A stretch of 64,000 nucleotides of DNA from Marine Group III euryarchaeote CG-Bathy1 (GCA_001875425.1 MIYU01000001.1:129804-193803), one strand, 5' to 3'. Counted from the stretch's first letter, positions 13,282-61,992 are shown. The notes: a model not told the origin generated them from the sequence alone. Made by a program: numbers and translations.

Positions 13282-13286
13282 CTGCC

Positions 13287-13619: not shown

Positions 13620-13627
13620 ATTATTTC

Positions 13628-13783: not shown

Positions 13784-13785
13784 TT

Positions 13786-14211: not shown

Positions 14212-14269
14212 TTTAACACCTTTCGAGGGGGCTTTGCCAGTCAAAGCCTATTATAAACTTAATCCCCCT

Positions 14270-14551
14270 TCAATCGTTAAAAATATTGAACACATGAAAC
14301 ACATGTACCATTAAACAAAATACAACAATTAAGCCCCCTATTATGTACAATCCTATCGTTTCATCTATTCTTGGAAAAACAATCAAAACTATAGCACCCA
14401 CTATTGCAGTCCATAATAACAGATATCCCATATACACATGAGGGGCTTTCTCGGAATCTTTCGCTCCCTCTACTAATCCTGTTATCTGCCCTCTATCCAT
14501 TCTACCTGTTATTGTATTCCTGTTAAAAACTTCACCGGTCACTATCTGCAA
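14270..14551 (-). CDS. small hypothetical membrane protein (two predicted TM helices)
   Basis: Two hydrophobic stretches: 'LLLWTAIVGAIVLIVF' and 'LYIIGGLIVVFCLMV'. The start is uncertain (TTG at 14551 or ATG at 14500). I recognise no family. Confidence 0.35.
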   Translation of the reverse strand: MQIVTGEVFNRNTITGRMDRGQITGLVEGAKDSEKAPHVYMGYLLLWTAIVGAIVLIVFPRIDETIGLYIIGGLIVVFCLMVHVFHVFNIFND

Positions 14552-16658: not shown

Positions 16659-16699
16659 TTTATTTCTGTTTGACAATTCCAAATTACCTCTATTTTTTT

Positions 16700-17410
16700 T
16701 CAGGTGCTGTTTGGAAGGCGCTTAAGGTGCTTTCCTACAACCTCTTTCGTTACGAATACAGTAGTACCTGCTTTCATTATTTTTCCACCATCTTTTTCGG
16801 CTTCACGCACATCTAACATCAACACTACAGGTTTCCCTATTATGTGTCTTCCTGCTTCAAGAGCATTTAATCTTGTTCCAGACAAATGCACCATCATTCT
16901 ATCTTCTGGAAAGAGGCCATTCTCTATGTAATCTTCTACATCATCTTCCGAACACGCGTAATAGAGGTGCTCAGGTACGCCTTCTGTTGGTAAATCCAAA
17001 TCTAAATCTATAGAATGGGCATAAGTCGCTCTTATTCTATTATCTTCAAATTGATATCTTCCTTTAGGGTCTGTTTCTATTACAGCTTTTACATGTTTAA
17101 TGGTCAAATATCCTAAACCACCTCTTTTCTGTTTGATTGCATCTACAAATTCCCCAACATCTATCCATCCTTGTTGAGTCATTTCTAAATCAAAACGATC
17201 AGGAAAATGTCTGAGTATTCCTGCCATTATACGTCCAAATTTATCAACATGTCTTGGAGACATTATCATCTCTCCGTCTTCTTCACAGAATTGACATTTT
17301 TCGCCTCTAAAAAAACCGTGTTCATATTTTACACATTCTTTTACAGGCTTTTCTTGAATTCGCCTTCTGTTCGAATAATTCTGTCTGTGCCCTCTCATAC
17401 ATAACCTCAT
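16700..17410 (-). CDS. kptA: RNA 2'-phosphotransferase (Tpt1/KptA) with an N-terminal Cys/His-rich extension
   Basis: 'AGILRHFPDRFDLEMTQQGWIDVGEFV' and 'VHLS' match Tpt1 motifs. The roughly 50-aa N-terminal extension contains 'C..YEH....C.FC'. Confidence 0.85.
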   Translation of the reverse strand: MRLCMRGHRQNYSNRRRIQEKPVKECVKYEHGFFRGEKCQFCEEDGEMIMSPRHVDKFGRIMAGILRHFPDRFDLEMTQQGWIDVGEFVDAIKQKRGGLGYLTIKHVKAVIETDPKGRYQFEDNRIRATYAHSIDLDLDLPTEGVPEHLYYACSEDDVEDYIENGLFPEDRMMVHLSGTRLNALEAGRHIIGKPVVLMLDVREAEKDGGKIMKAGTTVFVTKEVVGKHLKRLPNST

Positions 17411-24031: not shown

Positions 24032-27000
24032 ATGAATCGTAGCGTTTTGCCACTTTTAGTGTGTGCAATACTCATTTCCACTCCATTATTCATGCCTCTT
24101 TCAGAGTCATCTAACAGTGACAAAGATGTCCAAGGTTGGTGGTCTAATTATTCCAGAGATAAAGATAGAGATGGAATCAGCGATGTGTTAGAATGGAAAT
24201 TACAACAAGGTAATCGTTTCTTTGAGCCAGATTCAGCACGTGTTTTCATAAGATACGATCATCATCCCACAGATTCAGATATTGAAAAATTAGAAAAATT
24301 AGGAATAGAAGTAACTTATCGTGCTCAATATATCGACTTAGTTGCTACTACAATGCCTCGTAATCTAGTCTATCCAGTCTCTACTTGGTACGGCATTGTA
24401 ATGCTCGATGACATCGGTAAAGCAGTTCCACACATGAATGAAGCCGTTCCTGCAATGGGGGTAGATCAAGTTTGGAACAATTACGGTATTTATGGAAACG
24501 GAATCTCTATCGCTATAGTCGATACCGGGGTTGATAATGCCCATGTCGGTTTAGATGATATGGATGATAACATTCAAACTATGGATGATCTAAAAGTTGT
24601 AGCTTATTATGATGCAGTTCAAGATAATTTAGTATGTTCACCATGCTTACCTGGTGAATCTTTGGATAGTGGTACACACGGTACCCATGTTGCAGGTATA
24701 GCAGCAGGTACTGGTGATGGAGAGGCAGCACCAGACGGTTCACGCCATATTGGTGTCGCACCGAAAGCTAGCTTAGTCAACGTTCTTTCATGTTGCGATG
24801 GTGATATTGAAGACATTATCAGAGGTGTTGAATGGACGATAACTAATCAAAAACTAGTCGAACCAAATATCAGAGTTATGACATCCAGTCTCGGCGAACA
24901 ACAAATCGAATTTCATATCGATAACGATGGAAGCTCTGCTTGGAGTCAAGTTGTCGATGCCGCAGTAGAATCTGGCCTCGTAGTTACTTTGAGTGCAGGT
25001 AATGAATTTGGCTCAGCTACTGCAGCCGGTTGTAACACTATCGATTCACCCGGTGATTCAAGATTACCCATAACAGTCGCTTCTCTCGACAAAGATTTGA
25101 GTTTGGCAATATATAGCTCCAGAGGGTATACTTCGGATGGAAGAGTCAAGCCAGATGTCGCCGCTATAGGAAGCAGTATCATGGCCCCTAACAAGGGAAC
25201 TGGAACAGGTTACACTAGTAAAAGCGGAACTAGTATGGCCACTCCTTTGATGGCAGGTATTGTAGCTTTAACTTTAGAGGCTAATCCCGATTTAACCCCA
25301 ACAGAAGTTAAGGATACGTTAGTTGCAGGCTATTCTATCGAACGAGAAATATTAGATGATGATATAGATGCAGCATCTAATAATTGCTCAATTGCAGAAA
25401 CTAGACCGGACAACGAGTATGGTTATGGGCAGGCTGATCCAAAAACGTTCGTAGATATCTCTGGAAATATTGATTCTTCTTTGAGTATAAATTGGTCGTT
25501 AGAACCTGAATATATGTTAGTGAATGATTCTTACGTAGAGGTCAAACCAAGAATATATAACGAAAGTTGGATTAGAGGGGTCTCTGATTCTTCTGGTCAA
25601 TCAATTAGCATTGGTGTCGAGGTTCGTTTTGGCGTTGATAGTTGGTCTTTAGCAGATGATTTATCAGATAATGGTGATTGGAGTGAGTGGCAAATCAAAG
25701 TTCCTGAACAGACCAAAAAAGGCAATCAAACATTATACGCAAGATTAGTGGCCAATTCTGAACAAATGTCTCCCATGGCATCAGCATCTGTAGTTCTTCT
25801 CGATGAATACGATACTGATGATATCGGTTCTATTTCTTCACTTTCAGATTCAACAATTCTTCTATTGACGGCATTATTACTTGTTTTAACTGCCGGTGTG
25901 GGCATCCCTGTATGGAAGCGATATCGAAAATTAGTTAACAGTAGCACAGAAAATCAAAAACAGAATGTAAATCATCTCTTATTGTTTAGATCTTTAACGG
26001 ATGCTGCTCAGATTGCATTACTATACTGGACGGCTATGCGTTTCTTTTTACGAGATGAAGGGGCAAGCCAATCATTAGTTTCTGCCTATTATGGGATTGC
26101 GCTATTGGTTTTGGGCGTCAGTTTAATTTTTTGGGGGTACATAGCCGATACATATGGTTCTAGAAGAAAAATTCTTCTTTATACTTCAATCGGCTGCGCT
26201 ATTCTCTATCTCTTTATTCCATTTTTAGGCATATACGGTACAGTTTTCATTTCTATATTTCTATTGATGCTCCACGGTTCCGGTCGTATACCTAGGGCGA
26301 TTGCTTCTGAGTATTATCCTGATTGCCAAGGCGAATTCAATGGAGTTTTCTGGGGTATGTTCGCTTTGATATATTCTGTAGCATATCTTGCTGCTCCATC
26401 GATATACGAGTCTTTTGGTATGAATGCAATAGTCTTCTTCTGTTTATTATTGAATATTGCAGCAGCGTTCTGCGCATTCCGTTTAAACGAAATTGATGTT
26501 ATGCCTGGAACATTAGTTACTGATTCATCAACTCCTCTCGATTTTAATTCAAATTCATTCTCTTTAGATTCTCTACGTTTCAAGAATTCCTGGGTTAAAT
26601 GGATTTTACTAACCGTTTTCTTAATCTATATTCCTCGCGGAGTCATCGTTTACAATGCTCCGAATTATTTTGATGATATAGGTTATGACAGAAGTTTTGT
26701 TGGTGTAATAATGGGTTATTCGGTTGTAGCTTCTGTTATTCTTTATCCTTGGCTCGGTTCTGTTTGTGATCGTTTAGGAGCTTGGCAAGTACTTCTTTGG
26801 TCTGCTTTATTGTATATTCTCCTATGGGGTACTTTCAGTTCTGCCGTATCTACGCATCTGTCTGCATTTATTTTTATAATTCCTGTAATTCCATTTTTAC
26901 GTACTTCTAGAGATACGTTATTGTCTCAACTAACTGACTTGGATGAACGGAGTAAAGGTATGGGTTGGGGGGTTTTCATCGGTACACTTGGATATTCAGT

Positions 27001-27169
27001 TGGCGCTTTTTTCGCATCCGCAATGTTAGGTTGGTTAGATGCCAAAGATATGGAAATCCAAATGCAATATCTTTACACGTTCAGAGCTAGTTTAGTATTT
27101 CTTTTGTTAGCCTCTGCAGTTGCGTGGTGGTTGAATAAAAATACATCCAAGGAGGCTACCACTTGGTAG
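24032..27169 (+). CDS. fusion protein: secreted subtilisin-like (S8) serine protease, then a TM anchor, then an MFS transporter
   Basis: Signal peptide, then the S8 triad: 'AIVDTGVD' (D164), 'HGTHVAG' (H217), 'SGTSMATP' (S401). A TM helix spans aa 608-627 and is followed by 'KRYRK'. Next comes a multi-TM domain with MFS motif A 'GYIADTYGSRRK'. One uninterrupted 1045-codon ORF. Confidence 0.85.
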   Translation: MNRSVLPLLVCAILISTPLFMPLSESSNSDKDVQGWWSNYSRDKDRDGISDVLEWKLQQGNRFFEPDSARVFIRYDHHPTDSDIEKLEKLGIEVTYRAQYIDLVATTMPRNLVYPVSTWYGIVMLDDIGKAVPHMNEAVPAMGVDQVWNNYGIYGNGISIAIVDTGVDNAHVGLDDMDDNIQTMDDLKVVAYYDAVQDNLVCSPCLPGESLDSGTHGTHVAGIAAGTGDGEAAPDGSRHIGVAPKASLVNVLSCCDGDIEDIIRGVEWTITNQKLVEPNIRVMTSSLGEQQIEFHIDNDGSSAWSQVVDAAVESGLVVTLSAGNEFGSATAAGCNTIDSPGDSRLPITVASLDKDLSLAIYSSRGYTSDGRVKPDVAAIGSSIMAPNKGTGTGYTSKSGTSMATPLMAGIVALTLEANPDLTPTEVKDTLVAGYSIEREILDDDIDAASNNCSIAETRPDNEYGYGQADPKTFVDISGNIDSSLSINWSLEPEYMLVNDSYVEVKPRIYNESWIRGVSDSSGQSISIGVEVRFGVDSWSLADDLSDNGDWSEWQIKVPEQTKKGNQTLYARLVANSEQMSPMASASVVLLDEYDTDDIGSISSLSDSTILLLTALLLVLTAGVGIPVWKRYRKLVNSSTENQKQNVNHLLLFRSLTDAAQIALLYWTAMRFFLRDEGASQSLVSAYYGIALLVLGVSLIFWGYIADTYGSRRKILLYTSIGCAILYLFIPFLGIYGTVFISIFLLMLHGSGRIPRAIASEYYPDCQGEFNGVFWGMFALIYSVAYLAAPSIYESFGMNAIVFFCLLLNIAAAFCAFRLNEIDVMPGTLVTDSSTPLDFNSNSFSLDSLRFKNSWVKWILLTVFLIYIPRGVIVYNAPNYFDDIGYDRSFVGVIMGYSVVASVILYPWLGSVCDRLGAWQVLLWSALLYILLWGTFSSAVSTHLSAFIFIIPVIPFLRTSRDTLLSQLTDLDERSKGMGWGVFIGTLGYSVGAFFASAMLGWLDAKDMEIQMQYLYTFRASLVFLLLASAVAWWLNKNTSKEATTW

Positions 27170-40158: not shown

Positions 40159-43100
40159 TTACGAACAACCAGTTGTTGCACCACAACCCAAACATTTGAA
40201 GCAACTACCATTAGGAACTAGTTTGAATTGTCCACATTCTGGGCAAGGATCTCCCGAGTATCCCATCTTAATTGCTTCACTCGCACTTTCATTCCCACCT
40301 CGAACATCCGTTGAAACAATATTAACATTCTCTAAGTCTGTTGTATCATATATTGTATCACTTGTTCCAACATCATCTAAGGTCATCTGTATCTCATGAT
40401 TGTCTGTGGTTTCAGATCTAGGTGTTAATTTATTTCGACTTGCTTGTTCATTTTTCTCTTCGGATTCGGTCCGCAAAGCATCATGCATTAAATCTTCCGG
40501 CGTAACTTGATGGCCCAATTCTGTTCGTCCTAAGTAATTTATGGCTAAATCTCTGAATAAATAATCTATAACACTGGTGGTCATTTTTATTCTTTCATTT
40601 CCAACAATCGGTCCATTAGGTTCAAATCTAGTAAATACAAATGCATCTACAAATTCTTCTAGAGGTACTCCATGCTGAAGCCCAAGACTAATCGCTATAG
40701 CAAAACTATTCATTAACGATCTGAAAGCTGCTCCTTCTTTATGCATGTTAATGAATATCTCACCTAGCGTTCCATCTTCATATTCTCCAGTGTGTAAGAA
40801 TATGGTATGGCCTGCTATCTTAGCTTTTTGAATATAGCCTCCTCTCTTGTTGGGCATTCTTCTTCTCTGTGCTATATATCTGGTTATGATTTTCTTAGCA
40901 GCTAATTTTGCATTTGCCATAGGAAGTGCTTCAGATAGCATTTCTGCCGCAGCTCCAGCCGTCATCATTCCTTCAGGAATCATCATCTCTTCATCTTCTT
41001 CCATTTCTATCGCAGATGCGATTTCAAGTAATGCTCCAGACATCAAAGGCTGACTCAGTTTACTTGCGTCTCTGTATACTGCCATGGCCTTGTTCATTAA
41101 TTTCCATGATAATTCATAAACTTCTTCTATATCTTCTACAAGAACTTCATGCGGCATGTTTATTGTTTTTGATATTGCTCCACTTATGAATGGTTGAGCT
41201 GCTGCCATCATTCGAACATGAGCCTTATAATCTATAGATCTCTTTCCATATTTTCCGCATTTATTGGCACAATCAAATACTGCAAGATGCTCCTCTTTGA
41301 TATGGGGTGCATTTTCTATTGTAAGTTTACCAAAAATATGATTCTCCGCTTCTTCTATCTGTTGCTCTGAAAAACCCATATGTTTCAGTAATACAAACAT
41401 GGGATCATTCATCTGTTCATCCGTAAGTTTCAAATTATTTTTACAGAATTCGTCACCTATATTGAGAGGTGTAAACAACATTTTCATCGAAGTTAAACTA
41501 GCAACGCGCCCTTCTAGTTCAGATAATACTTTTTCTGTAAATCCATAATTCATTAATGTTTCATTATTGATGTGCGGTGCTCCATCAAATTTTCCAGTTC
41601 CTATTATGTATTCTACAATCTCATCTCTTTCAGAGTCAGAGTATCCAAGTTTTTTCAATGCCAAAGGGACTGATTGATTTATTATTTTTAGAGACCCGCC
41701 ACCTGCTAATGTTTTAAATTTAATTAAAGCAAAATCAGGTTCTATTCCGGTAGTGTCACAATCCATCACAATGCCTATTGTGCCTGTAGGTGCAATCACA
41801 GTTGCTTGAGCATTTCTATATCCATGTTCTTCTCCCATTTCTAATGCAGAGTCCCAAGCTTTTTTGGCTGCTTTTACTAAATATTCTGGACAACTGTCTG
41901 GATTTATTCCCTGAGGCGTTATAGTCAATTCTTCATATTTTTCTGGTTTTTTATTATATGCAGCTCTGCGATGATTTCTAATTACTTTTAACATTTCATT
42001 CTTATTATAATCATATCTTTCAAACGGACCTATAACTCCTGCTATCTCGGCACTCGTTGCATAACTTATACCTCCCAATATTGCAGTAAGGGATCCACAT
42101 ATCGCATAAGCTCGAGGATCATCATATGGTATTCCCATTCTCATTAAGAGAGATCCAATATTCGCATATCCCAACCCTAGTGTTCGATATTCATAGCTAA
42201 GGCGCGCTATTGCTTCACTCGGGAATTGAGCCATTAATACGGATATTTCTAGAACTACAGTCCATATTCTTACAGCGTGCTCATAAGCTTCTACATCGAA
42301 CGTTTCTGTTTTTTCATCATAAAAACTTCCTAGATTCAAACTTGCTAAATTACATGCAGTATCATCTAAGAACATATATTCAGAACATGGATTACTGCCT
42401 CTTATTTTTCCATCCTTCGGGCAAGTATGCCATTCATTTATTGTTGAATGATATTGTATTCCTGGATCTGCACACGACCATGCTGCCTGAGATATTTTTC
42501 TCCACAAGTCATTGGCTGGCATGCTTTTACAAGGTTCAGCCACCCGCCCCTCTTTCTCTGCCTTTACCAGTTCAGTTCTCCAATAAAGATTCCACACTCC
42601 ATCTTTGGCAACAGCTTCCATGAATTCATTTGTTACTCTTACTGAATTATTACTATTCTGTCCAGAAACAGTTTGGTAAGCTTCCCCTTCCCATTCAGTT
42701 CCATATGTTTCGAATTCTATAGATGTCCATCCCTGTTCACCCAATTCTAAAACTCTTCCTATCAAACTATTCGGTATATGGGCTTTCATTGCCTTTTTCA
42801 AAGCTTTAGCTAGTTCTGGATTTTCTTTCTGATCCATTCTTTTTTCAGCATCTGGATATGCTTGTATTGCTGCTAACAATTCATTACAATGTTCTTGTAT
42901 GTGTAACGAACCAGAAACTAATCCTGCTACCTTTTCTTCTTCTTTAACTTTCCATTCTATGAATTCTTCTATATCTGGATGGTCCATATCTAAACTAACC
43001 ATTTTTGCTGCACGTCTAGTCGTTCCACCAGATTTGATAGCTCCTGCAGCAGTATCTCCTATTTTTAGAAATGACATTAATCCAGAACTTGTTCCACCAC

Positions 43101-43860
43101 CTGATAGGGCTTCACCTCCACCTCTTATATGTGAAAAATTACTACCTGTTCCAGAACCATATTTGAATAGTCTTGCTTCTCTTGTCCATAAATCCATTAT
43201 CCCACCTTCTTTGACTAAATCATCACTTACAGATTGAATGAAACAAGCATGAGGCTGTGGTCTTTCATATGCATTTTTAGAATTTTCAACTTGACCAGTT
43301 TCTTGATCAACATACAGATGCCCCTGTGCCGGCCCTTCTATTCCATAGGCCCAGTTAAGTCCAGTGTTGAACCATTGTGGTGAATTAGGTGATGCCATTT
43401 GCGCGGCCAACATATAGCATAATTCATCATAGAAAGCCCTCGCATCTTTTTCCGTTTTAAAGTAATCATTTTTCCATCCCCAGTATGTCCACGTTCCAGC
43501 TAATCTTCTAAACAATTCTTTTCCATCAGTTTCTTCCACATATCTTTTTTCTTTTTTAATTTTAGAAAGTGCTTTTTCATCAGGCACACTCTTTGAAAGC
43601 CAAAGGGGCACTCCGCGCTCTTTCGACTTTTTTAGTTTCGCTGCGATTCCCGCCTTTCTAAAATATTTCTGCGATAACACGTTAGCTGCAACACCGCTAA
43701 AATTTTCGGGCAAGTTTACATTTTTCATTTCGAAAGCGCTGCTTCCATCAATATTCAAAATCTCTATATTTCTCTTTTTCCATTTCAATTTTCCAAATGC
43801 TTCTTCCCCCTCATTTGTAAATTTTCTACCTACCTTCAAACCTTCAGAATTCGGCGGCAC
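40159..43860 (-). CDS. nrdJ: adenosylcobalamin-dependent (class II) ribonucleotide reductase, long form with a C-terminal zinc ribbon
   Basis: Contains 'ACFIQSV', '[13 protein letters not shown]', '[21 protein letters not shown]' and 'APTGTIG'. The C-terminal 'CPECG...CFKCLGCG' is a zinc ribbon. GTG start with GGAGGAG 5 nt upstream. Confidence 0.95.
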
Positions 43861-51073: not shown

Positions 51074-51613
51074 TTGGAGGAATTTGCATTTTTATTAGAT
51101 ATATTACCGGAAGGTAGGCCAGATAGTCAAAGAAGATTTAGAAGAGAATCTATTGTTTACGGCATCGGTTCTGAGGAATACAAAATTTTTGAAATGGAAC
51201 CGGTCAAGGACGCATCACTCTCTATTGGTGACAAAGTCTATATCGGTAAAGAACATGAATTAAGAACGCAAATCGAATCCGTAAAGGCTCGAGTCAAATA
51301 CAACGATTTAACTCATACTGCTCAATCAGAATTACCATTTATTCTCGATGACATAATAAAATCTCAAGAAGAAAAATTCGTCCAATTCTTCAACAACGCC
51401 GGTCCGATTTCAAGAAGATATCATTCTTTAGAATTACTACCTGGTTTGGGTAAAAAAACAATGCAAGGAGTTATCGGATCTCGTCCTTTTTCTTCTTTTC
51501 AAGAAATAGAAGATAAAGTTCAAGGTTTCAAAAATCCGGCTAAGTACATATCTGCACGTATAGAGCACGAAATAAAAGTTCAAGATCAAAAATACCGATT
51601 ATTCGTTCGTTAA
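51074..51613 (+). CDS. DUF655-family predicted nucleic-acid-binding protein (OB plus HhH)
   Basis: N-terminus 'FAFLLDILPEGRP' and C-terminal 'LELLPGLGKKTMQGVI' (HhH). Conserved position after rpoF. TTG start. Confidence 0.7.
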   Translation: MEEFAFLLDILPEGRPDSQRRFRRESIVYGIGSEEYKIFEMEPVKDASLSIGDKVYIGKEHELRTQIESVKARVKYNDLTHTAQSELPFILDDIIKSQEEKFVQFFNNAGPISRRYHSLELLPGLGKKTMQGVIGSRPFSSFQEIEDKVQGFKNPAKYISARIEHEIKVQDQKYRLFVR

Positions 51614-52755
51614 TCTTTTTCACTTCCTTCCATTTTCAATATCTCTCTAGCTTCTGAAACGCAGTAGAAAGATCCCGTTATCAACGTTTTTTGTTCATCT
51701 ATATTTTCTATTGCATTTTTAATCGATTCAAAACTTCTATACTTATTTTGGTTACGTTCAGCAGCTTTTATCATATCCCTTACGCTCATTCCTCTTTTAT
51801 TTTTCATAGGACACAATAATAATTCAACGTTCTCTGGTAAAGTAGACAACATTCTATCAACATCCTTGTCTTTCATACAAGAAAAGATTATTTTTTCTAC
51901 AGTATCTACTCTTTTCATCAATCTTTCCAAGGCTTGAAAATTGTGCGCACCATCAAGTATGAAATTATTTCGTATCTCCATTCTTCCTGGTATCTTTACC
52001 GTTCTCTTTTCGTATTTTATTCCTAATAGATTAGATACACATTCTACCCATTCATCCGAATCTTCCCCAAATTGTATCTTAACGCATTCAGGTATAAGTC
52101 TCCAATTTTCTTTTTGCCATCCGGTAATAACTTCACTATATTCTTTCACTATCTTACCTTTTGTCGTACCTATTTCTTTTATTGTGTTGCCTAAATATTC
52201 TACATGATCTAAACCTAATGTCGTCAGAACTACAATATCTCCCCTTCCAATATTAACAGCATCAAATTCACCACCCATTCCAACTTCCATCACTGCCAGA
52301 TCTACTTTATTGTTTTCAAAGTAAAGATATGCCATGACGGTCGTAATCTCAAAATACGTTACGAGGATTCCATTCTTCTCTGCTACCCTATTAACTCGAT
52401 TAAAGATTTCAACGAAATCATTCCTTTCAATTATTTTTCCATCGATTCGAAACCGTTCTCTTATTGTATGTAAGTGGGGCGAAGTAAAACATCCAACTTT
52501 CAGATTATTATTTTTAATCAAATCTTCAAGTTTGTAGCATGTGGTTCCTTTTCCATTGGTACCTCCTACTATTATCGTTTTTAATTTTTTTTCAGGATTA
52601 CCAAGTTTTTCCATTATCGCTTCGATTCTTTCAAGACCGGGTTTTATTACAAATTCTCCAATTCTTTCTAGTTCATCTAGGCATTTGTAGTATTCTTTAT
52701 TCTTACTCAATTGTTTCCCATTCCATATCTCTTTCCGTAAGTATTCCCTGATCAC
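51610..52755 (-). CDS. folC: Mur-ligase-family folylpolyglutamate/dihydrofolate synthase-like protein
   Basis: Contains 'IIVGGTNGKGTT' (P-loop), 'SPHL' and 'MEVGMGGEFDAVN'. Short form of 381 aa. The start is uncertain: GTG at 52755 or TTG at 52710. Confidence 0.8.
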   Translation of the reverse strand: MIREYLRKEIWNGKQLSKNKEYYKCLDELERIGEFVIKPGLERIEAIMEKLGNPEKKLKTIIVGGTNGKGTTCYKLEDLIKNNNLKVGCFTSPHLHTIRERFRIDGKIIERNDFVEIFNRVNRVAEKNGILVTYFEITTVMAYLYFENNKVDLAVMEVGMGGEFDAVNIGRGDIVVLTTLGLDHVEYLGNTIKEIGTTKGKIVKEYSEVITGWQKENWRLIPECVKIQFGEDSDEWVECVSNLLGIKYEKRTVKIPGRMEIRNNFILDGAHNFQALERLMKRVDTVEKIIFSCMKDKDVDRMLSTLPENVELLLCPMKNKRGMSVRDMIKAAERNQNKYRSFESIKNAIENIDEQKTLITGSFYCVSEAREILKMEGSEKD

Positions 52756-53036: not shown

Positions 53037-53043
53037 TTTATAT
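53037..53043 (+). promoter_or_regulatory. candidate TATA box for the giant surface-protein gene
   Basis: 'TTTATAT' is centred about 33 nt upstream of the ATG at 53073. Based on motif and spacing only. Confidence 0.3.
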
Positions 53044-53072: not shown

Positions 53073-56000
53073 ATGATGAATTTCAGACCAAATAATACCA
53101 TGTTAGCCAGCTGGCTCGTTATGCTAGCTGCCGTGGGAGCACTATTCTTAGTCGGGTCAGCCGATGCCGGTTACACGGTATCCGTTACACCGGCAGAACA
53201 GAATGGTGTCCCAGAAGAGACACTGTCCTTCACAATAACTATAGATAATACCGATCCGGATGACGACGATACGTTTCTCGTCAACGTAAGTTTTGTCGGT
53301 TCTGTCGAACAAGACTGTGACGGATGTTGGGATACTTGGGTGTCTCAATCTACACTCAGTATAGATGCAGACGAGTCTGGAAGTACTAACTTCTATGTCA
53401 AGATTGGAGATATAGCACATGCAGAAGCCGATAGCGATGAGAGAGTTCTAGTAGAAGTAACACCTACCGTTGATAATGAAGCCTATTCTCAAGATGTTCG
53501 TGTTATCGTTGACCCAGCTTACGGCTGTACTCTAGAATTACTAACGCAAGAGTCTCCAGATTTAGATCCCTTTGATACATATCAGTTCGATTTCAACATA
53601 ACCAATTCAGATGGAAATGCCGAAGATAATATCGCTCTTTCATACAGTGCAAGTAGCGAAGACGGCATGTCAATCGCATACCCACCTCAAGTTTCAGATA
53701 TTGGTATGGGTGAAACAGCAGGATTCTCAGTAACTATATCTATAGATGAGACGACCGCAGCTAAAGGAACTAGATACATAAGTGTCACAGCTACCTCTGC
53801 AGACGGTTCAACAAACGTATCCACTACTTTCCAGTTTACCGTCAATATCTATAGGGATATTCAACTTTCTGAAGTAGATACAGGTTCAAAGGATATTATT
53901 GAGGGTGGTTCAGTCTATTATGGCGTAACTGTTACTAATGTAGGTAATTCTGCAGATACCTTCGTTCTAAGTATCGACGAGTCTTCAATTCCAGCCGACT
54001 GGGATGCTCAGTTGGGTTCATTGACAGATACAGGTAGTTTGGCACCAGGTGCAAGTTACACTTTCAGTGAAGCTATCTTTGTTTATGCACCAGATGATGC
54101 AGTTGCAGATGATATTGCTTTAATAGATATCGTCGTGACATCTGATGCAGATACTAATACTTCTAAATCGTTCCAAACTCGTTCTACAGTAGCTCAGAAT
54201 TATAAGCCTACTATACAAACGACTTCACAAACCAGTAGCGGCGCTCCAGGGACTGTAGTTTCATACACATTTACAGTTACTAACGCAGGTAATGGTAATG
54301 ATGAATTCAGTATTGAAATCACAGAACCAAATGCTGATGAATGTGCTCAGAACAATGCAGCATGCTGGGGTGTCGATCTAACTCCAGATGATGTAACGCC
54401 ACAAATGGCTCCTGATGGCTCCTTCGCGTTCACACTCAATATAACTATCAATGAAAATGCCTTGAAGCAATCATATACGGTTGTAATTAATGCAACATCT
54501 TCAGGCGCAGGATCCGATGGGTCATACACAACTAAAAACGTCTATGTGGAAGTTTCCGCTAGAGCAGATATTAGTTTAGATTCATCTGGAACTTCAAATA
54601 TAGAAGTAGATGCAGGTCAAACTGCAGAATATAATCTAACTATCACTAATGATGGAAATGATGAAGACGATATTTCTTTATCAGCAACTTGTGAGGCATG
54701 TGCTGATGGAGATTGGACTTTCCAATTCGTTGGCGGTTCAACTGTAACTATCGCTGCAGAATCTAGTACTACAGTGGTTTTCAGAGTAGATTCTCCTGAT
54801 GATGCAATTGCAAATCCTTACACCACAGTAATTACCGCAACTTCATCTATCGATGAGACTGAGACTGCTACAACAGAAGTTATCACCGAGATAAAGGAAA
54901 AATTCGAAGTTGATTTAGATTCAACAGAATCACAGAAACCAGGTACACCTTCAGACACTGTTGAGTTCTCATTAACTGTAACTAATGATGGTTCAGGCGT
55001 TGATGAGATTGAACTAACTTATGAGTTCGATGAGGCATCTTCTGGAGAGTTCTTAGAGTTCCCATCTTTCAGTAATAACACAGTTTCTTTGAATCCCGGC
55101 GAGAGTGCATCAGTAACCTTTTCATTACAAGTTTCTGAAGATGCTGATGATGTTTCTCACGGTATCACTGTAACAGCGACTTCTAAGAATGCAGAATCTG
55201 AAGAAGGTATTTCCGTTACAGATATGGTAAGTCTAACTGTAGTTGTTCAACCAGTATATGATGTTAGATTAACTTCAGATACTACAGTTGTAACAGCCAA
55301 TCCAAGCGAAAGTATCGATTTCGAAATGACGCTTGAAAATCAAGGTACAGATGAAGATACAATTACAATTACTGCAGAATATCCTTCTGCAATATATTCA
55401 GTATCTATATCACCAAACGCTCCAACAGTTTCTGAGGGTTCAAACGTAACTATCTCAGTCACAATAACTGTCGATGAAGATGCGTTGAAGGATATCTATA
55501 ATATCACTTTCACTGCTACTTCAGAAAATGACGGAACAGTTGATGCTACACACATGCTAGATGTAGATGTAGCTCAGCGATATGAAATTGAAATTCTCTT
55601 TTCAGATGGTTCATACGAAGCTGCACCTTCAGAAGAAGCAGTTTCAAATGTAACATTGACTAACAAAGGTACTGGTGATGACAGAGTTCAATTATCAATC
55701 GATAATGATGACTGTATAACTCGATATTCAGCAGAAAATTGTGTTGGAGATTGGGGTTCATTAGCACAAACATTAGTCCCAGCTGCAGACGGGTCGTTTG
55801 CTGCTGAAGAGACTGCAGAAGTAGCATTGACTGTTACTATTCCATCTTCCGCAGAACCTTCTGTTACTGCAGGTGTGTATTATGTTACAGTAGCTGTTCA
55901 ATCGTTGGACAATGAAACGGCAATGGATTTTGTAGACATACAGATAGTAGTCAAAACAATCTCTGTAGATCTTACTGGAGTTAGTACTACAGCTGATATT

Positions 56001-59000
56001 GAACCGGGTAGAACAGGCCAATTCACTGTCGATGTAACAAATGATGGTCAGGTTTCCGATACAATAACTGTTACTATTTCAGAAAGTAGTGGTTTCGGTT
56101 GGGCCTCTTTTGACGAAGACGGTAGTACAGAAATACAAATTTTATTGGCTGCAGGCGCTATCTCAACTGTAACTATCAATTTGGATCTTCCAAATTATGA
56201 TAATGTTACCGGTAGTGAGAAACAGAAATTAGCGGCAGACTATAATTACAATTTCAAGGTCGAGGCAAAGACTTCAGTCGGTTCAGTTGAATCATCTAAT
56301 TCCGTAACTATGACTGCAACTATCGAACAGATATATGGAGTCACAGTTGAATTAATTAATTCAGCCGTAACTAATGCAAGTACATTCCCATCAGCTGAAA
56401 TCGAGACAACTATTTTCGATGTACTGATAACTAATCTGGGTAATGGACAAGATAATTTCAAGGTCGAGACTTCACAACCAACAGGATTGACAGTCAACGT
56501 ATTCAACGTTAAGAGTTCATCCAGTTGTAGTGATGAATGGTCTCAGGCACAAGATACAATAAACGCTGCAGATGATGCTAGAGTTTATCTCTGTTTAACA
56601 CCACAAGAATCTGATTTAGATATTGGTAATTATCCAATCTCAATGTCCGTCAAGGCTAGAAATGGTGGAGACTCACCAGAATCTATAGATGTTGAGTTAG
56701 AGGTCAAAGAACCAACTAGAGATTTCTCACTAACTGTTGAAACAGCAGTGAAAGAAGTAGCTCCTGAATTCAGTTCAAGTGGAACGCCAAGCTCTACGAA
56801 GAACGTCGTCAAATTCAGAATAATCGTTCAAAACGATGGTTCACACGATGACAGATTCGTACCAGATATGGTGGAAGGTTACAATACAGCAACAAATGCA
56901 GACATAGGTGGTAATGGTGTCGACTGGTCATGGGACTTTTACGAGAGCCAAACTGAAACTAGCAGTAATAAGTGGGGAGGCTCACAAAGTTATGAGCTAA
57001 TTGATAGTGGTGCACAGAAAGAACTCTGGTTCATCATACATGTAGATTCCGAAGACGTTCAGTCTGGAACTTACAATATGACTCTCAAAGTCGAGATAGA
57101 AGATCAGGAAGGAGACATCAAACTATCTAAGACTACTACCGTTTCAATAATTGTTAATGAACCAACTCCAGGTATGTCCTTGACTATTTACGAGAACGTC
57201 AAAGATATCCAACCGGAGTACGAAGGGACATCTAGTGACAATGAAATACAATTCAAGATTAAGATAGAGAATACAGGTTCTCATACAGATTCTTTCATCT
57301 ATGTAGATGATCCAGACGCGGTTGAAGATGGCTGGGATATTGAATTCCAGACAAGTACAGGTTCTACATGGGATGATAATAACGGTGAAGATATTCAATC
57401 AACAGAATCTAAAGATATGTATGTCGTAATCACTGTTGACGATGAGGCAGAAGTCGGTAACTACACTATCAGAATTGACATTCAAAATTCAGAGGGTGAC
57501 AGTGAAGCTTCTGATACAGCAGTTCTTTACGTAATGGTCTTGAGGCCAGATTTAGCTTTAACACCTGCAGATATTACATTGTTAGTTAACAATGCAGAGG
57601 CAAACGCTTCACTTATCAGAGAGGACGATTCTCTAGCTATTTCTATAGCTGTTAAGAATTCAGAAAGCTCTGATGAATTTGCAACTAAGGCGGATGATGT
57701 TTTAGTAGAAGTTTACGTCTATCCTAGAACAAGCCCAGAACCAGGCTCAACACTAGCTACTGAATTAGAATTCACTTATGGTTTCACACAAGATAACGAT
57801 TACGGTTTCATCAAGATGATTTACAGCAGAGAGAATCGAATCGATGTCGGTGGTAGAGATATAGGAACTAGTGATTGGTCTGTAATCGGTGGAGAATGGT
57901 ATATCGAAGTCCGAGTGGATTACGATTCTTCTGATGACAACGGTAAGATTCTAGAAACTAACGAGAATAACAACAAAGCTCGTTACGCAGAACTACTACA
58001 AATCAAGGCCGATTTATCAATATCTGAAGTTTATGTAGATAGTAAGTATGTCGGTAATGGTTCCAGTGTTCCAAACTTAGGTGATACGGTAACGTTCACT
58101 GCAACAGTTGCTAATACTGGAGCAGCAGACATTCAGGATGCAAAACTCTTCATTACTGGCGATACAACTACTTCTAATGAAATCTTGAAGACCACTAGCA
58201 GTCAAAGTTATGTCGAATTCGATGTCGACGCTGGTGGAACTAAACAGGTCACATTCCGTTGGAAGGCCGGCTCTGTAGCTAGTACCTCTAAACTAGTTTC
58301 AGAATCTTGGAATGGTATCAGAATATCTGTAAATCCAAGATGTAGTGATTTCAATCTATTCGGCTGTGATACTGATTTAGATAGGGAGTTCGACGAGCTT
58401 AACCGTTATCAGAACAACGAGTATCCATCTTCAGGTCAGTTCACTCAGAATGGTTATGAGCTAGCATTCAACATGCTTCCAGATTTCACAATAGCTAAAG
58501 TCAAAATGAATCCATCATCACCAACTGTGGGTGAAACTGTTGCAATTACAGTTACTATCGAAAACGTCGGTAACACTGATTGGGAATACGGTTCAGGATC
58601 ATTATACTTAGTATTCGATGACAGTATTGGCGATGAAGTAACTACACAAATCGGTTCCTCTATTGATAAGGGTGGAGATTTCGATGTAGAATTCGATTGG
58701 ATATTCCCAGAAGCTGAAAACAAGAACGAAATCAAACTTTCATTTGAGCTTGATGCAGGTTCAGGAAGTAATAAGATTGAACAACTATCAAGCGACAATG
58801 ATGATGAAGAAGTAACACTAGAGGTCGTACTTCCTGCTGTTTTAGGTGATGTACCTGGTGTTGAGTTCTTGACTAAGAGAGAATTAATTCCAGGCGTACC
58901 TATGTACATACCTGTCGTACTCTTCCTGGGTGTTTTCGTTGTTGGTTTACCAGTACTCTTCAAACTGCGCAGTCTTACTGCTGCAGCAGCCAAAGCAGAG

Positions 59001-59324
59001 GCAAAGGCCGGAGGAAAATCAGATGATGACGGTGATAAACCAGCATCCGCAGCACCAGTAGCAGCTGCAACAGAAGCAGCAGCACCAGCAGCACCAAGCA
59101 AGGTAGGTTTGTCTATCAAATCTCCAGATGGCAAGACTGCAAATGTCAAAGTCCCTTCAATCATGCCAGTTCAGAGATTATTGCAAAATTGTGTGAATAA
59201 CAAATTCATACCTGATGCAAACTTCAATGTAATGCTTGATGGAAAGCCAGTTGATCCAAACACTACTTTGGGTGATGCAGGTTTCAAAGACGGCTCAGAA
59301 GTACAACTAGCACCTAAAAAATAG
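53073..59324 (+). CDS. giant (2083 aa) multi-repeat cell-surface protein with a C-terminal TM anchor and a cytoplasmic ubiquitin-like tail domain
   Basis: Signal peptide 'LASWLVMLAAVGALFLVGSADA'. At least 12 Ig-like/CARDB-NEW3-type modules each carry a 'T(V/I)TN.G...D.(F/I)' motif. TM helix at aa 1944-1963 (58902-58961), then an Ala/Lys/Asp-rich linker. The last 73 or so aa align position by position with ubiquitin. Confidence 0.8.
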   Translation: MMNFRPNNTMLASWLVMLAAVGALFLVGSADAGYTVSVTPAEQNGVPEETLSFTITIDNTDPDDDDTFLVNVSFVGSVEQDCDGCWDTWVSQSTLSIDADESGSTNFYVKIGDIAHAEADSDERVLVEVTPTVDNEAYSQDVRVIVDPAYGCTLELLTQESPDLDPFDTYQFDFNITNSDGNAEDNIALSYSASSEDGMSIAYPPQVSDIGMGETAGFSVTISIDETTAAKGTRYISVTATSADGSTNVSTTFQFTVNIYRDIQLSEVDTGSKDIIEGGSVYYGVTVTNVGNSADTFVLSIDESSIPADWDAQLGSLTDTGSLAPGASYTFSEAIFVYAPDDAVADDIALIDIVVTSDADTNTSKSFQTRSTVAQNYKPTIQTTSQTSSGAPGTVVSYTFTVTNAGNGNDEFSIEITEPNADECAQNNAACWGVDLTPDDVTPQMAPDGSFAFTLNITINENALKQSYTVVINATSSGAGSDGSYTTKNVYVEVSARADISLDSSGTSNIEVDAGQTAEYNLTITNDGNDEDDISLSATCEACADGDWTFQFVGGSTVTIAAESSTTVVFRVDSPDDAIANPYTTVITATSSIDETETATTEVITEIKEKFEVDLDSTESQKPGTPSDTVEFSLTVTNDGSGVDEIELTYEFDEASSGEFLEFPSFSNNTVSLNPGESASVTFSLQVSEDADDVSHGITVTATSKNAESEEGISVTDMVSLTVVVQPVYDVRLTSDTTVVTANPSESIDFEMTLENQGTDEDTITITAEYPSAIYSVSISPNAPTVSEGSNVTISVTITVDEDALKDIYNITFTATSENDGTVDATHMLDVDVAQRYEIEILFSDGSYEAAPSEEAVSNVTLTNKGTGDDRVQLSIDNDDCITRYSAENCVGDWGSLAQTLVPAADGSFAAEETAEVALTVTIPSSAEPSVTAGVYYVTVAVQSLDNETAMDFVDIQIVVKTISVDLTGVSTTADIEPGRTGQFTVDVTNDGQVSDTITVTISESSGFGWASFDEDGSTEIQILLAAGAISTVTINLDLPNYDNVTGSEKQKLAADYNYNFKVEAKTSVGSVESSNSVTMTATIEQIYGVTVELINSAVTNASTFPSAEIETTIFDVLITNLGNGQDNFKVETSQPTGLTVNVFNVKSSSSCSDEWSQAQDTINAADDARVYLCLTPQESDLDIGNYPISMSVKARNGGDSPESIDVELEVKEPTRDFSLTVETAVKEVAPEFSSSGTPSSTKNVVKFRIIVQNDGSHDDRFVPDMVEGYNTATNADIGGNGVDWSWDFYESQTETSSNKWGGSQSYELIDSGAQKELWFIIHVDSEDVQSGTYNMTLKVEIEDQEGDIKLSKTTTVSIIVNEPTPGMSLTIYENVKDIQPEYEGTSSDNEIQFKIKIENTGSHTDSFIYVDDPDAVEDGWDIEFQTSTGSTWDDNNGEDIQSTESKDMYVVITVDDEAEVGNYTIRIDIQNSEGDSEASDTAVLYVMVLRPDLALTPADITLLVNNAEANASLIREDDSLAISIAVKNSESSDEFATKADDVLVEVYVYPRTSPEPGSTLATELEFTYGFTQDNDYGFIKMIYSRENRIDVGGRDIGTSDWSVIGGEWYIEVRVDYDSSDDNGKILETNENNNKARYAELLQIKADLSISEVYVDSKYVGNGSSVPNLGDTVTFTATVANTGAADIQDAKLFITGDTTTSNEILKTTSSQSYVEFDVDAGGTKQVTFRWKAGSVASTSKLVSESWNGIRISVNPRCSDFNLFGCDTDLDREFDELNRYQNNEYPSSGQFTQNGYELAFNMLPDFTIAKVKMNPSSPTVGETVAITVTIENVGNTDWEYGSGSLYLVFDDSIGDEVTTQIGSSIDKGGDFDVEFDWIFPEAENKNEIKLSFELDAGSGSNKIEQLSSDNDDEEVTLEVVLPAVLGDVPGVEFLTKRELIPGVPMYIPVVLFLGVFVVGLPVLFKLRSLTAAAAKAEAKAGGKSDDDGDKPASAAPVAAATEAAAPAAPSKVGLSIKSPDGKTANVKVPSIMPVQRLLQNCVNNKFIPDANFNVMLDGKPVDPNTTLGDAGFKDGSEVQLAPKK

Positions 59325-59334
59325 GTACATTTAG

Positions 59335-60516
59335 ATGTACTATGACGCCTTAGTGATAGGCGCAGGACCTAGTGGTTCCAGAGTCGCTTGGAGGCTGGCA
59401 GAAGCCAATCTAAAAGTTGCATTAATTGAAGAAGACTCAATCGTAGGAGAGCCGTGTCAATGCGCAGGTTTAGTCACCCCTAGGACAATCGACTATCTAA
59501 ATTATGATATTCCCATTCTAGGTGAAATGAGCGGGGCTCGCCTTTGGGGTCCTCAAAATTCGTTCCTAGAGTTTCAAGCTAATGAGACTAAAGCATTAGT
59601 CATAAATCGTCCAGATTTAGATCGTTCAATAGCGGATAAGGCCGTTTCAGCAGGCGCCGTTCTAATGACAAATACACAATATCTAGGGTTTAGTAGAATT
59701 GATAGTCATTTGAAAGTAACACTTCAATCTGAAAATAAAACTATAGAGTTAGAAACAGAATTGATTATAGGTTCAGATGGCCCAGCTTCTCGAGTTGCTC
59801 GTGATGCAGAACTTCAAACTTCTAGAGAGGTTCTAGCTGCATTTGGTGGGGACGTAGAAGGTTTAACAACCAAAGAAAATCATGTAGAATTATTCGTCGG
59901 TTCAGAAGTCGCTCCAAGATTCTTTGCTTGGATTATTCCAACAGGCGAATCTACCGGTAGACTAGGTCTTGCTACTTCTCTTCCAAGTAGACCTAAGAAA
60001 TATTTCTGGGATTTATTCAAGAAAGGAGCTCCTTCTGCATTACTTGAAAATGCTAAAATTGTAAATCGAATCAGCGGTCTTATTCCATTCGGTTTACGAA
60101 ATCCCGCATATTCTGATAATGTTATCTTAACTGGTGATGCTGCCGGAATGGCGAAACCAACTTCCGGTGGAGGAATCTATTCAGGTTTAGTTTCAGCAGA
60201 TGCAGCTGTAGATACTGCAATTCTCGCTTTTCAGAAAGGGGATTTATCTGCCTCTACTTTGAAAAGATATCAATTTCTAATAGAATCTGATTTTGCTAAA
60301 GAACTTAAATTAGGTTCATATCTAAGAAGGGCTTTCGTCGAATTAAGTGATTCTCAATTAGCTGAAATAATAAACAGCTTAAATGATCCAAAAATAAAGA
60401 AAACAATACAAGAGTACGGCGATTTAGATTACGCTTCAGCTGTCGCTTTTGCTGTTCTTAAGGTAAAGCCACAAATGATCAAGTTCGCCCCTCTCTTACT
60501 GAAGCCATTTGTTTAA
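59335..60516 (+). CDS. geranylgeranyl reductase-family flavoprotein (digeranylgeranylglycerophospholipid reductase-like)
   Basis: Contains 'YDALVIGAGPSGS' (FAD GxGxxG), 'GSDGPASRV' and 'LTGDAAGMAKPTSGGGI'. Starts 10 nt after the giant gene. Confidence 0.85.
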   Translation: MYYDALVIGAGPSGSRVAWRLAEANLKVALIEEDSIVGEPCQCAGLVTPRTIDYLNYDIPILGEMSGARLWGPQNSFLEFQANETKALVINRPDLDRSIADKAVSAGAVLMTNTQYLGFSRIDSHLKVTLQSENKTIELETELIIGSDGPASRVARDAELQTSREVLAAFGGDVEGLTTKENHVELFVGSEVAPRFFAWIIPTGESTGRLGLATSLPSRPKKYFWDLFKKGAPSALLENAKIVNRISGLIPFGLRNPAYSDNVILTGDAAGMAKPTSGGGIYSGLVSADAAVDTAILAFQKGDLSASTLKRYQFLIESDFAKELKLGSYLRRAFVELSDSQLAEIINSLNDPKIKKTIQEYGDLDYASAVAFAVLKVKPQMIKFAPLLLKPFV

Positions 60517-60537: not shown

Positions 60538-61992
60538 ATGCTCAGATGTTATCATTTAGATGTGACATGGGCCTCAAGAATTTTAACTACCGCCTTTCTT
60601 TTCTTAGTTTTATGCTCTCAAAACTCATCAGCAGAGGATGTTCATTACGATAACCTAAGTATATCTTACGAAGAGTCTTTGGTTCATATCGACGATCAAA
60701 TATTTTTGAAAGATTCTATCGAATTATACGGCAACCTCTCTCTCTATAATTGTACTGTATGGATGGATAAACCGGAAGATGGCTGGTCTGAAATTCGTAT
60801 ACACACTAATGCAACTTTAACCATGGTCAATAGTTCGATTAGACCTACAGAAGAGTTAGAAAATTACATCTTAACTGAAATAGGTCTCGGTTCAGCATAC
60901 GGTTTTGCAGTTGGAGCTGACACCATTCCAAGTACAGATACCTGGGCTCGATTAGATATTTCTAATTCAGATTTTTTCATGACGCATATTCGTTTAAAAC
61001 ATGCGAATGCAACAATAGAAAACAGTACTTTTCACGGTTATCATCACAACAATACTACAGCTATACCTGATGGTCTATGGTCTGAAAATTCTTTTTTAGA
61101 TATTCAAAATTCAAGTTTTATTGATTATGATCAAGGTTTCAAATCCGTAGGCTATTTAGCAAATCACTACAATGTCACTTGTTCAGATTGCATTTTTCTA
61201 ATGTCACAAGAATGGTGGACAAACAATATCTCCTTATTAGATCAAAACGATTTACAAATCAATTATTCAAAATTAGTCAAGTATTTGGATTCTAGTATTT
61301 CTTGTTACAATTCAGGTATTTGTTCCAATTTAACAGGTTGGTTTTGGGTCCCAGAATACTTTATCCTAAGTGATGGAGAGTCGATAGAATATCAGAATAC
61401 CACTCTGATTTTTTCCGTACCGAAGGCATTGTGGACTGAGGATATTAGTAATTTTAAATTGATTTGGTCTGGTACTATTTCTGAAAATAACCCCTCACTT
61501 TCTATCAATCTTAATGATATATTCTTGTCAAATATGATTCTTTATAGCGATAATGAAACTATAGTTGATAATTCCCCTATTAAGAAATATTCAAACGTTT
61601 CCTCATCATTAATTATCAACAATCCTACTGACTTTTCTATTCAGAATTTAGATTTAGAACTCCTAGCAGATAATCAATCAGTTTCTGTTAGAATTTCAGT
61701 TAACATACCTGCTCATTCTAGTATCAATGTAGAGCTTTCCTGTAATTCTCTTTGCTGGTATTCTACAAACGGTAGTTCAAATCAGAGTCCTATTGTTTTG
61801 AGCGCAGTTCTCAGCGCTTCTGATAATGGCGTTTATTATTTCCAGTCTAATACTTCTTCTAATTTATTTTTTACACCTATAACTCCTTTCGTTGAAGATG
61901 AAACCGATCCAAGATTCACAGTCTATTTTACCGTCTTAATCGTTACTTTTGCAATTGGCATAGTCCTTTATCGAAACTTGAATTGGAAGTAA
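60538..61992 (+). CDS. hypothetical secreted, C-terminally TM-anchored protein, extremely rich in N-glycosylation sequons
   Basis: Signal peptide 'ILTTAFLFLVLCSQNSSA' and C-terminal TM 'FTVYFTVLIVTFAIGIVLY'. My hand count gives about 22 N-x-S/T sequons in 484 aa. Confidence 0.5.
   Translation: MLRCYHLDVTWASRILTTAFLFLVLCSQNSSAEDVHYDNLSISYEESLVHIDDQIFLKDSIELYGNLSLYNCTVWMDKPEDGWSEIRIHTNATLTMVNSSIRPTEELENYILTEIGLGSAYGFAVGADTIPSTDTWARLDISNSDFFMTHIRLKHANATIENSTFHGYHHNNTTAIPDGLWSENSFLDIQNSSFIDYDQGFKSVGYLANHYNVTCSDCIFLMSQEWWTNNISLLDQNDLQINYSKLVKYLDSSISCYNSGICSNLTGWFWVPEYFILSDGESIEYQNTTLIFSVPKALWTEDISNFKLIWSGTISENNPSLSINLNDIFLSNMILYSDNETIVDNSPIKKYSNVSSSLIINNPTDFSIQNLDLELLADNQSVSVRISVNIPAHSSINVELSCNSLCWYSTNGSSNQSPIVLSAVLSASDNGVYYFQSNTSSNLFFTPITPFVEDETDPRFTVYFTVLIVTFAIGIVLYRNLNWK

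Follow-up and report, generated by a model that had tools for sequence, protein, structure and literature searches.

A stretch of 64,000 nucleotides from the Marine Group III (MGIII) euryarchaeote CG-Bathy1 (GCA_001875425.1 MIYU01000001.1:129804-193803), referred to here as the window, carries a giant gene whose product is predicted to end in a ubiquitin-like (Ubl) beta-grasp domain. The domain follows the transmembrane (TM) helix of a very large surface protein, it is predicted to lie in the cytoplasm, and it lacks the C-terminal Gly-Gly of a conjugated modifier. It may serve as a built-in docking module at the inner end of an envelope protein. The parts of the giant gene are as follows.

53073..59324, + strand: giant gene, an open reading frame (ORF) of 2,083 codons for a predicted type I membrane protein of 2,083 amino acids (aa)
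53073..53168, + strand: predicted signal peptide, residues 1-32 (MMNFRPNNTMLASWLVMLAAVGALFLVGSADA), the N-terminal hydrophobic segment, with likely cleavage after ADA
53169..58901, + strand: ectodomain of ~1,900 aa with immunoglobulin-like (Ig-like) repeats, from Pfam and NCBIfam matches
58902..58961, + strand: predicted single TM helix, residues 1944-1963 (MYIPVVLFLGVFVVGLPVLF), Kyte-Doolittle peak 2.5
58962..59099, + strand: predicted cytoplasmic flexible linker, residues 1964-2009, 46 aa, rich in Ala, Lys, Asp and Pro, with an AlphaFold predicted local distance difference test (pLDDT) score below 50
59100..59321, + strand: predicted ubiquitin-like (beta-grasp) domain, residues 2010-2083, 74 aa, without Gly-Gly, from Pfam, AlphaFold and Foldseek

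The tail adopts a predicted ubiquitin fold

The segment 58962-59321 encodes the 120 residues that lie C-terminal to the sole C-terminal TM helix. On this tail alone the Pfam model Rad60-SLD (PF11976) scored 33.6 bits (E 3.4e-8) against a gathering score of 23.8, and the match spans profile positions 3-70 of 72. In the whole protein the same model scored 29.2 bits, which is still above 23.8. The Pfam ubiquitin model (PF00240) reached 22.5 bits, slightly under its cut-off of 25.4, and homologues of the protein bear precomputed PF11976 and PF11470 assignments. Alignment with phmmer and MAFFT matched the tail without gaps to human ubiquitin residues 4-73 at 19-22% identity, and the top sequence matches in the PDB were ubiquitin chains, gap-free over ubiquitin residues 4-67. 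Common to both are the GKT turn, the IP after the helix, the GK..D..TL.D motif and the hydrophobic core.

AlphaFold2 run on the single sequence gave the beta-grasp order with a pLDDT of ~85 for the tail, a helical TM segment and a disordered linker, and the Ubl domain modelled by itself with a seven-sequence alignment reached a pLDDT of 86.6. The predicted order is strand-strand-helix-strand-strand-short helix-strand (E6-12, E18-24, H29-38, E47-51, E54-56, H62-65, E71-77). When this model was superposed on known structures with Foldseek, the PDB matches were ISG15, ubiquitin, NEDD8 and SUMO, with TM-scores of 0.80-0.86, root-mean-square deviations of 1.7-2.2 A, probability 1.00 and identities of 13-22%; these proteins fill the 50 best matches listed. 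Since Pfam, PDB sequence matches, AlphaFold and Foldseek provide four independent lines, we group the tail with ubiquitin proper. On the predicted structure it is a true ubiquitin-family beta-grasp domain that belongs beside ubiquitin, ISG15, NEDD8 and SUMO.

An initial annotation of this DNA, made from the sequence alone, had described much of this arrangement, and most of it stands. The 73-residue string that it gave for the tail is the exact C-terminus of ORF 53073..59324, and its residue numbers 2005-2083 are right, with the fold itself spanning approximately residues 2010-2081. The linker after the single C-terminal TM helix is Ala/Lys/Asp-rich and begins positively (KLRS), as it had been described. 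The column-by-column match to ubiquitin is real and, given the Rad60-SLD E value, lies beyond chance, and the beta-grasp fold agrees with both the AlphaFold model and the Foldseek superpositions. The resemblance to the YukD/EccD type that had also been suggested does not hold: the Pfam YukD model (PF08817) gave 14.5 bits against a cut-off of 27 and covered residues 92-113 only (22 residues), and no YukD, ThiS or MoaD structure appears among the 50 best Foldseek matches listed. Kinship with ThiS, MoaD or SAMP was rejected as well, as no such Pfam model matched at E up to 1 and the Gly-Gly is missing. Scanning the ORFs of the window revealed no genes of a type VII secretion system (T7SS) in the neighbourhood.

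An ORF of 236 aa on the opposite strand (58454..59164) was considered and dismissed as a mechanical by-product of the Ala-rich linker rather than a real gene. The + frame is taken as coding because it is conserved at the protein level in 35 other loci.

Membrane topology and architecture of the giant protein

Hydropathy analysis of the window protein indicated two hydrophobic segments only, the signal peptide and the C-terminal TM helix. The first covers residues 8-30 and is signal-peptide-like (...LVGSADA followed by GY); the cleavage after ADA is a direct reading of the sequence, made without a dedicated tool. All 27 full-length orthologues have an equivalent of the N-terminal segment, and 26 of them have exactly two hydrophobic segments, the exception being L017 with one further window over the cut-off at residue 929. 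The 15 residues ahead of the TM helix are acidic (mean D+E 3.9, K+R 2.0), and the helix is followed by a basic cluster (mean K+R 4.4) in which RRR, KLR or KAGKKK directly adjoins it. This inner-side positive charge pattern occurs in 27/27. Because a signal peptide is combined with one stop-transfer helix and a basic cluster after that helix, the Ubl domain is assigned to the cytoplasm, in agreement with the location given by the initial annotation. The giant is thus predicted to be a type I protein (N-out, C-in) with the ectodomain outside and the Ubl domain inside. The orthologues have linkers of 27-46 aa that are acidic and Ser-rich; that of the window protein opens with KLRS directly after the TM helix.

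The ectodomain is very acidic (D+E 17%, K+R 4.6%) and contains matches to the Pfam families FixG_C, NPCBM_assoc/NEW3, DUF7507, CARDB and DUF11. The NCBIfam choice-of-anchor T model (NF041740) scored 188.9 bits against a cut-off of 70 over seven ectodomain stretches. The PACE-CTERM "putative S-layer protein" model gave a weak match of 29 bits, under its cut-off of 110. The signature of archaeosortase substrates (PGF-CTERM and relatives) is absent, with no PGF motif ahead of the helix (...RELIPGVPMYIPVV...), and the 120 residues beyond the TM helix are far longer than a sorting signal of the archaeosortase type.

Distribution and relatives

Six metagenomic fragments with the order TM helix, linker and Ubl domain came up in a word-indexed search, and scanning one genome per prokaryotic species yielded 34 loci. 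Those with informative names are mostly Marine Group III, Poseidoniia or Poseidoniales, and many others are named merely "uncultured archaeon", "Methanobacteriota" or "Thermoplasmata". L022 (JBJLEF010000011.1) is labelled "Pirellulaceae bacterium" and L013 (CAUYZR010000014.1) "Candidatus Thalassarchaeaceae archaeon"; both are near-identical to MGIII copies, and the two labels probably reflect mis-binning or mislabelling. A close relative of the window is L001, in which the TM-Ubl tail is 91% identical and the neighbour genes are 87-99% identical.

Each of the 34 MGIII loci has the Ubl domain, as does a divergent orthologue, and it always lies C-terminal to the TM helix; the complete MGIII loci have ORFs of 1,774-2,106 codons with the Ubl domain at the end of every one. 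Absence of the tail from homologues would have counted against the initial annotation, and it is present in all that were found. The divergent orthologue, P0032 (2,374 aa; 10001-17125 of locus L035), is distant and has the same overall design. As in the window, a divergent FolC-type gene lies upstream of it and a geranylgeranyl reductase gene lies downstream. Because both the design and the flanking genes are shared, the design is older than the split of the MGIII and L035 lineages. In the divergent branch (P0032, P0024 and P0094) the Ubl domain is not terminal and a Pro/Ala-rich extension of 35-40 residues comes after it. The L035 contig also bears FlpD/heterodisulfide-reductase-like Fe-S genes, a hint that this lineage may live differently.

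A HMMER profile search run exhaustively over 1.84 billion representative proteins gave 79 matches at E up to 1e-3. Six of these, at E <1e-30, are giants or fragments of giants. Most of the others contain 4-10 tandem Ubl repeats, the named ones being eukaryotic ("ubiquitin family protein [Pelomyxa schiedti]", "ubiquitin C"), and one such protein has 33-36% identity per repeat to the window domain. Beyond the family, multi-Ubl proteins of the eukaryote type are closest in sequence. No clearly separate set of matches from Marine Group II emerged from this library, which carries no taxonomy, despite the heavy sampling of that group, and the Ubl tail is probably absent from it. A word-index search with the membrane-proximal ectodomain, limited to 8,000 candidates, was uninformative on Marine Group II; among the matches listed it returned close relatives and one 24%-identical CARDB protein, which has a plain TM anchor without a Ubl domain.

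Two unrelated proteins among the matches of the exhaustive profile search have similar Ubl repeats with the pattern "GKTVTAELP...L...L..KM.LP". P0027 (305 aa) carries a pair of Ubl domains behind two hydrophobic segments, and P0045 (1,052 aa) has two Ubl domains around what appears by eye to be a Hint/intein segment. In prokaryotes, Ubl domains that are membrane-tethered or embedded may occur more widely than annotations show.

Conservation of the Ubl domain

Mean pairwise identity was calculated in 76-residue windows of a MAFFT alignment of the 27 orthologues. The Ubl domain reached 0.79, compared with a median of 0.63 across the protein, and is among the two most conserved 76-aa stretches, its sole equal being a part of the ectodomain near residue 1604. 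The TM helix (0.43) and the linker (0.36) are the least conserved parts. Between the window protein and the others except L001, identity is 0.57 in the Ubl domain and 0.21-0.45 in the ectodomain.

Comparison of the 26 distinct MGIII Ubl sequences revealed a block of 14 residues, DGKTANVKVPSxMP, that is invariant apart from one position and corresponds to ubiquitin 9-22. It comprises the turn between strand 1 and strand 2, strand 2 itself and the loop into the helix. Within the helix, L, Q, N and C do not vary either, and 88% of the sequences have Met at the Ile44 position. The block covers several positions that are solvent-exposed in ubiquitin (T9, K11, T12, T14, E16, E18, P19, D21 and T22), and invariance at such positions suggests a binding surface rather than maintenance of the fold alone. 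Judged from these alignments, purifying selection on the Ubl domain is strong, surface positions included.

The domain is not suited to conjugation

The window chain ends in ...QLAPKK at the equivalent of ubiquitin L73, and the flexible tail and Gly-Gly that would follow are absent. The 34 MGIII orthologues end in LVPLE or LVSLEE at ubiquitin position 73 or one beyond, again without Gly-Gly, so that the MGIII proteins stop 2-4 residues past the last strand. In the divergent branch, P0032 and P0024 read ...VVAKGG before the Pro/Ala-rich extension and P0094 reads ...VVAKDAG. As KGG is not conserved within its own branch, we regard it as incidental. A processed Gly-Gly form was rejected on the basis of the KDAG of P0094 and the short MGIII ends. 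With no Gly-Gly, an N-terminus fused to the giant chain and a C-terminus right after the last strand, the domain is by its sequence not conjugatable, and the view of the initial annotation that it is not a modifier of the SAMP or ubiquitin type is borne out.

Proposed function of the Ubl domain

We are inclined, on balance, to believe that the Ubl domain is a built-in non-covalent docking module for a cytoplasmic partner, in the manner of the integral Ubl and UBX domains of eukaryotic proteins. This function is favoured because of the conservation pattern, in which an invariant surface block stands next to a drifting TM helix and linker. The Ubl domain would be held under the membrane anchor by a flexible leash of ~45 residues (27-46 in the orthologues). 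The partner, a cytoplasmic protein that is either soluble or peripheral, would bind to a conserved surface made up of the hairpin of strands 1 and 2, the outward-facing side of strand 2, the loop that leads into the helix and the Ile44-equivalent residue. Through this contact the surface protein, which is conserved and single-copy at the locus, would be coupled to the inside of the cell. For extraction and turnover the candidate is an AAA+ unfoldase (Cdc48/VAT, or PAN with the proteasome) and for positioning a protein of the cytoskeleton or of division; a membrane-peripheral enzyme is a further candidate. That the domain is a recruitment handle on the main envelope protein, most likely for a Cdc48/VAT- or PAN-type AAA+ protein or a cytoskeletal or division partner, is a narrower proposal that we make tentatively and consider well short of probable. 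The initial annotation had proposed docking for secretion, anchoring or turnover. Docking for anchoring, organisation or turnover would be consistent with the conservation, and secretion is unlikely because the Ubl domain is synthesised last.

Several points weigh against the docking function. The topology that it presupposes is derived from hydropathy and the positive-inside rule. The divergent branch keeps the block only partly, as DGKVAKPKMPPSMP, which indicates that the putative interface is not universal, and the high conservation of the Ubl domain could come in part from folding constraints on a very small domain. The neighbours of the giant are housekeeping genes, and no partner was identified from gene context. 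No genes for E1-like, E2, JAMM/DUB (deubiquitinase), Cdc48, UBA-type or proteasome proteins were found in ~45/48 window ORFs of at least 150 aa; the searches of the 35 related loci addressed synteny and the Ubl domain. Searching the window and these loci with the hidden Markov model and six-frame ORFs revealed no second copy or free Ubl besides the giant's own tail.

An unlikely alternative is a passive anchor or "stopper", in which the compact, stably folded hydrophilic domain and the RRR cluster stop the TM helix of a force-bearing ectodomain from being pulled out of the membrane, or cap the chain end. A single TM helix has to hold a very large ectodomain of ~2,000 residues, the Ubl domain always sits behind that helix on a short leash, and the neighbourhood offers no partner gene, all of which would suit a stopper. 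Any hydrophilic tail would serve this purpose, however, so that a stopper leaves unexplained both the specifically ubiquitin-family fold and the exposed positions that are invariant in 26 distinct copies beside the drifting TM helix and linker. The conserved surface patch would equally suit a homotypic interface, through which Ubl domains would associate with one another beneath the membrane and cluster or register the giants in an ordered surface array. PB1 domains and the EccD Ubl dimer are precedents for such self-association, and the syntenic gene with its ectodomain of surface-layer (S-layer)-like repeats, together with the weak, below-cut-off PACE-CTERM match, would fit an array. We nevertheless consider self-association distinctly unlikely, as a flexible leash whose length varies between 27 and 46 aa would poorly transmit lattice register.

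That the Ubl domain is cut free, or its Gly-Gly exposed, and then attached covalently like ubiquitin or a SAMP appears very improbable. In sequence the domain lies nearer to ubiquitin of the eukaryote type than to any Ubl family of prokaryotes, the divergent branch has two members with the KGG before a Pro/Ala tail, and a 2015 survey reported a UCH-type DUB and RING E3s in one Marine Group II single-cell genome (PMC4327156). Against a modifier, the window protein and the 34 MGIII orthologues end without Gly-Gly (LAPKK, LVPLE, LVSLEE), the KGG is not kept in its own branch (P0094 KDAG), and the scanned window ORFs include no E1, E2 or JAMM gene nearby. Scarcely credible is a chance or low-complexity resemblance, or an extracellular tail. 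The near miss of the Pfam ubiquitin model (22.5 vs 25.4) and the one N-x-T sequon that the tail holds are the points in its favour. A chance resemblance is contradicted by the Rad60-SLD score over its cut-off, the confident model, the Foldseek probability of 1.00 and the exhaustive profile search, which returns ubiquitin-family proteins, and an extracellular tail by the positive-inside signal in 27/27 orthologues.

Comparison with known systems

The domain has the same fold and strand order as the ubiquitin family (ubiquitin, NEDD8, ISG15, SUMO/Rad60-SLD; PF00240, PF11976), from which it differs by lacking the flexible C-terminal tail and Gly-Gly and by its N-terminal fusion to a membrane protein. 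The permanent fusion and the missing Gly-Gly point to an integral Ubl domain and not a modifier. Herp/HERPUD1, TMUB1/2 and UBXD8/Ubx2 carry non-conjugatable Ubl or UBX domains on the cytosolic face of the membrane, where they recruit p97/Cdc48, the proteasome or factors of endoplasmic reticulum (ER)-associated degradation. The giant resembles them in that a membrane protein has a non-conjugatable ubiquitin fold at its cytosolic side. They are small and reside in the ER, usually with the Ubl at the N-terminus, whereas here the domain forms the C-terminus of a 2,000-residue surface protein, and only the fold is common. With YukD/EccD the likeness is that of a cytoplasmic, non-conjugated beta-grasp domain tied to an envelope membrane protein; EccD is polytopic with an N-terminal Ubl, whereas the giant is single-pass with a C-terminal Ubl and has no T7SS context. 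SAMPs, Urm1, ThiS and MoaD include archaeal beta-grasp proteins too, but they are free, small, activated by E1-like enzymes and end in Gly-Gly. S-layer and surface glycoproteins and the "choice-of-anchor" families share the signal peptide, the acidic Ig-like ectodomain and the C-terminal anchor with its basic cluster. The usual archaeal C-terminal anchor (TM helix or PGF-CTERM) ends a few basic residues past the helix, whereas the giant adds 120 residues with a folded, conserved domain.

The initial annotation knew of no such arrangement in archaeal surface proteins, and no prior description was found in the literature. The papers searched include none that joins Marine Group III or Poseidoniales with a ubiquitin-like tail or an S-layer Ubl, and the words "transmembrane", "membrane-associated" and "membrane protein" are absent from the text of the 2007 beta-grasp survey. 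Integral membrane-tethered Ubl domains are already known, and the case of an archaeal surface protein in Poseidoniia is apparently new.

Marine Group III and its sister Marine Group II are abundant, uncultured ocean archaea with, to our knowledge, an essentially undescribed envelope biology. The giant is probably a principal MGIII surface protein, since none of the recovered MGIII genome fragments has the gene at a different position, and the conserved Ubl domain on its inner side suggests that envelope and cell interior are physically linked. It would represent a clear ubiquitin-proper-like domain, rather than a SAMP, ThiS or YukD relative, that is used in Thermoplasmatota as a fixed domain and not as a tag, and it bears on how ubiquitin-fold adaptors originated before, or alongside, conjugation. 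If the recruitment-handle proposal is true, the giant would be an archaeal counterpart of UBX/Herp-type membrane adaptors and would extend non-conjugative ubiquitin-fold signalling at membranes beyond eukaryotes and the Asgard/Aigarchaeota ubiquitin systems. As the 74-residue domain is small, soluble and easily expressed, the partner question is directly testable.

Gene neighbourhood of the giant gene

Three neighbours of the giant gene deserve mention.

51610..52755, - strand: FolC-type Mur-ligase-family gene, divergent and upstream (NCBIfam folC, 285.9 bits)
59335..60516, + strand: geranylgeranyl reductase family gene, 10 nucleotides (nt) downstream of the giant (NCBIfam GG-red-SF, 203.5 bits)
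60538-61992, + strand: unnamed ORF of 484 aa between the reductase and Kae1

The reductase starts 10-21 nt past the stop of the giant in 34/34 MGIII loci and in L035 (17146-17346), and the two genes are probably co-transcribed. The pairing of the giant with a lipid-saturating enzyme is older than the rest of the checkable synteny, and this pairing may represent either an inherited gene order or a functional link. The FolC-type neighbour is kept in 25 loci and L035. The 484-aa ORF has no Pfam or NCBIfam match; its position is kept in 27 loci, its identity beyond the closest relative is only 23-28%, and its product appears to be fast-evolving. Further genes are found upstream (Pus10, L21e, RpoF and DUF655, then the divergent FolC gene) and downstream (Kae1 and Bud32, after the reductase and the 484-aa protein), and 23-34 loci share this order of neighbours, the number varying with the gene. 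Because the whole region is syntenic across MGIII, adjacency says little about a specific partner. The AT-rich intergenic region that the giant has in common with the FolC gene contains TTTATAT at 53037-53043, ~30 nt ahead of the giant's ATG, which would suit an archaeal TATA box and a transcript with almost no leader.

Other features of the window

An ORF at 24032-27169 (+ strand, 1,045 aa) fuses a subtilase domain (Peptidase_S8, residues 155-466, 161 bits) to a C-terminal MFS transporter (MFS_1, residues ~670-1040, 78.9 bits), which is an unusual combination. A 767-aa Beta_propel (PF09826) protein at 21691-23994 directly precedes it. The run of genes at 1677-9062 (- strand) encodes a tryptophan 2,3-dioxygenase, two LigB-type extradiol dioxygenase subunits, an aldehyde dehydrogenase, a short-chain dehydrogenase, a luciferase-like monooxygenase and an asparaginase II, and looks like a kynurenine or aromatic ring-cleavage cluster. 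At 40159-43860 (- strand) lies an unusually long class II ribonucleotide reductase of 1,233 aa with a TSCPD domain at residues 1017-1106. Its barrel domain matches in two separate stretches, a split that could be due to an intein or another insertion.

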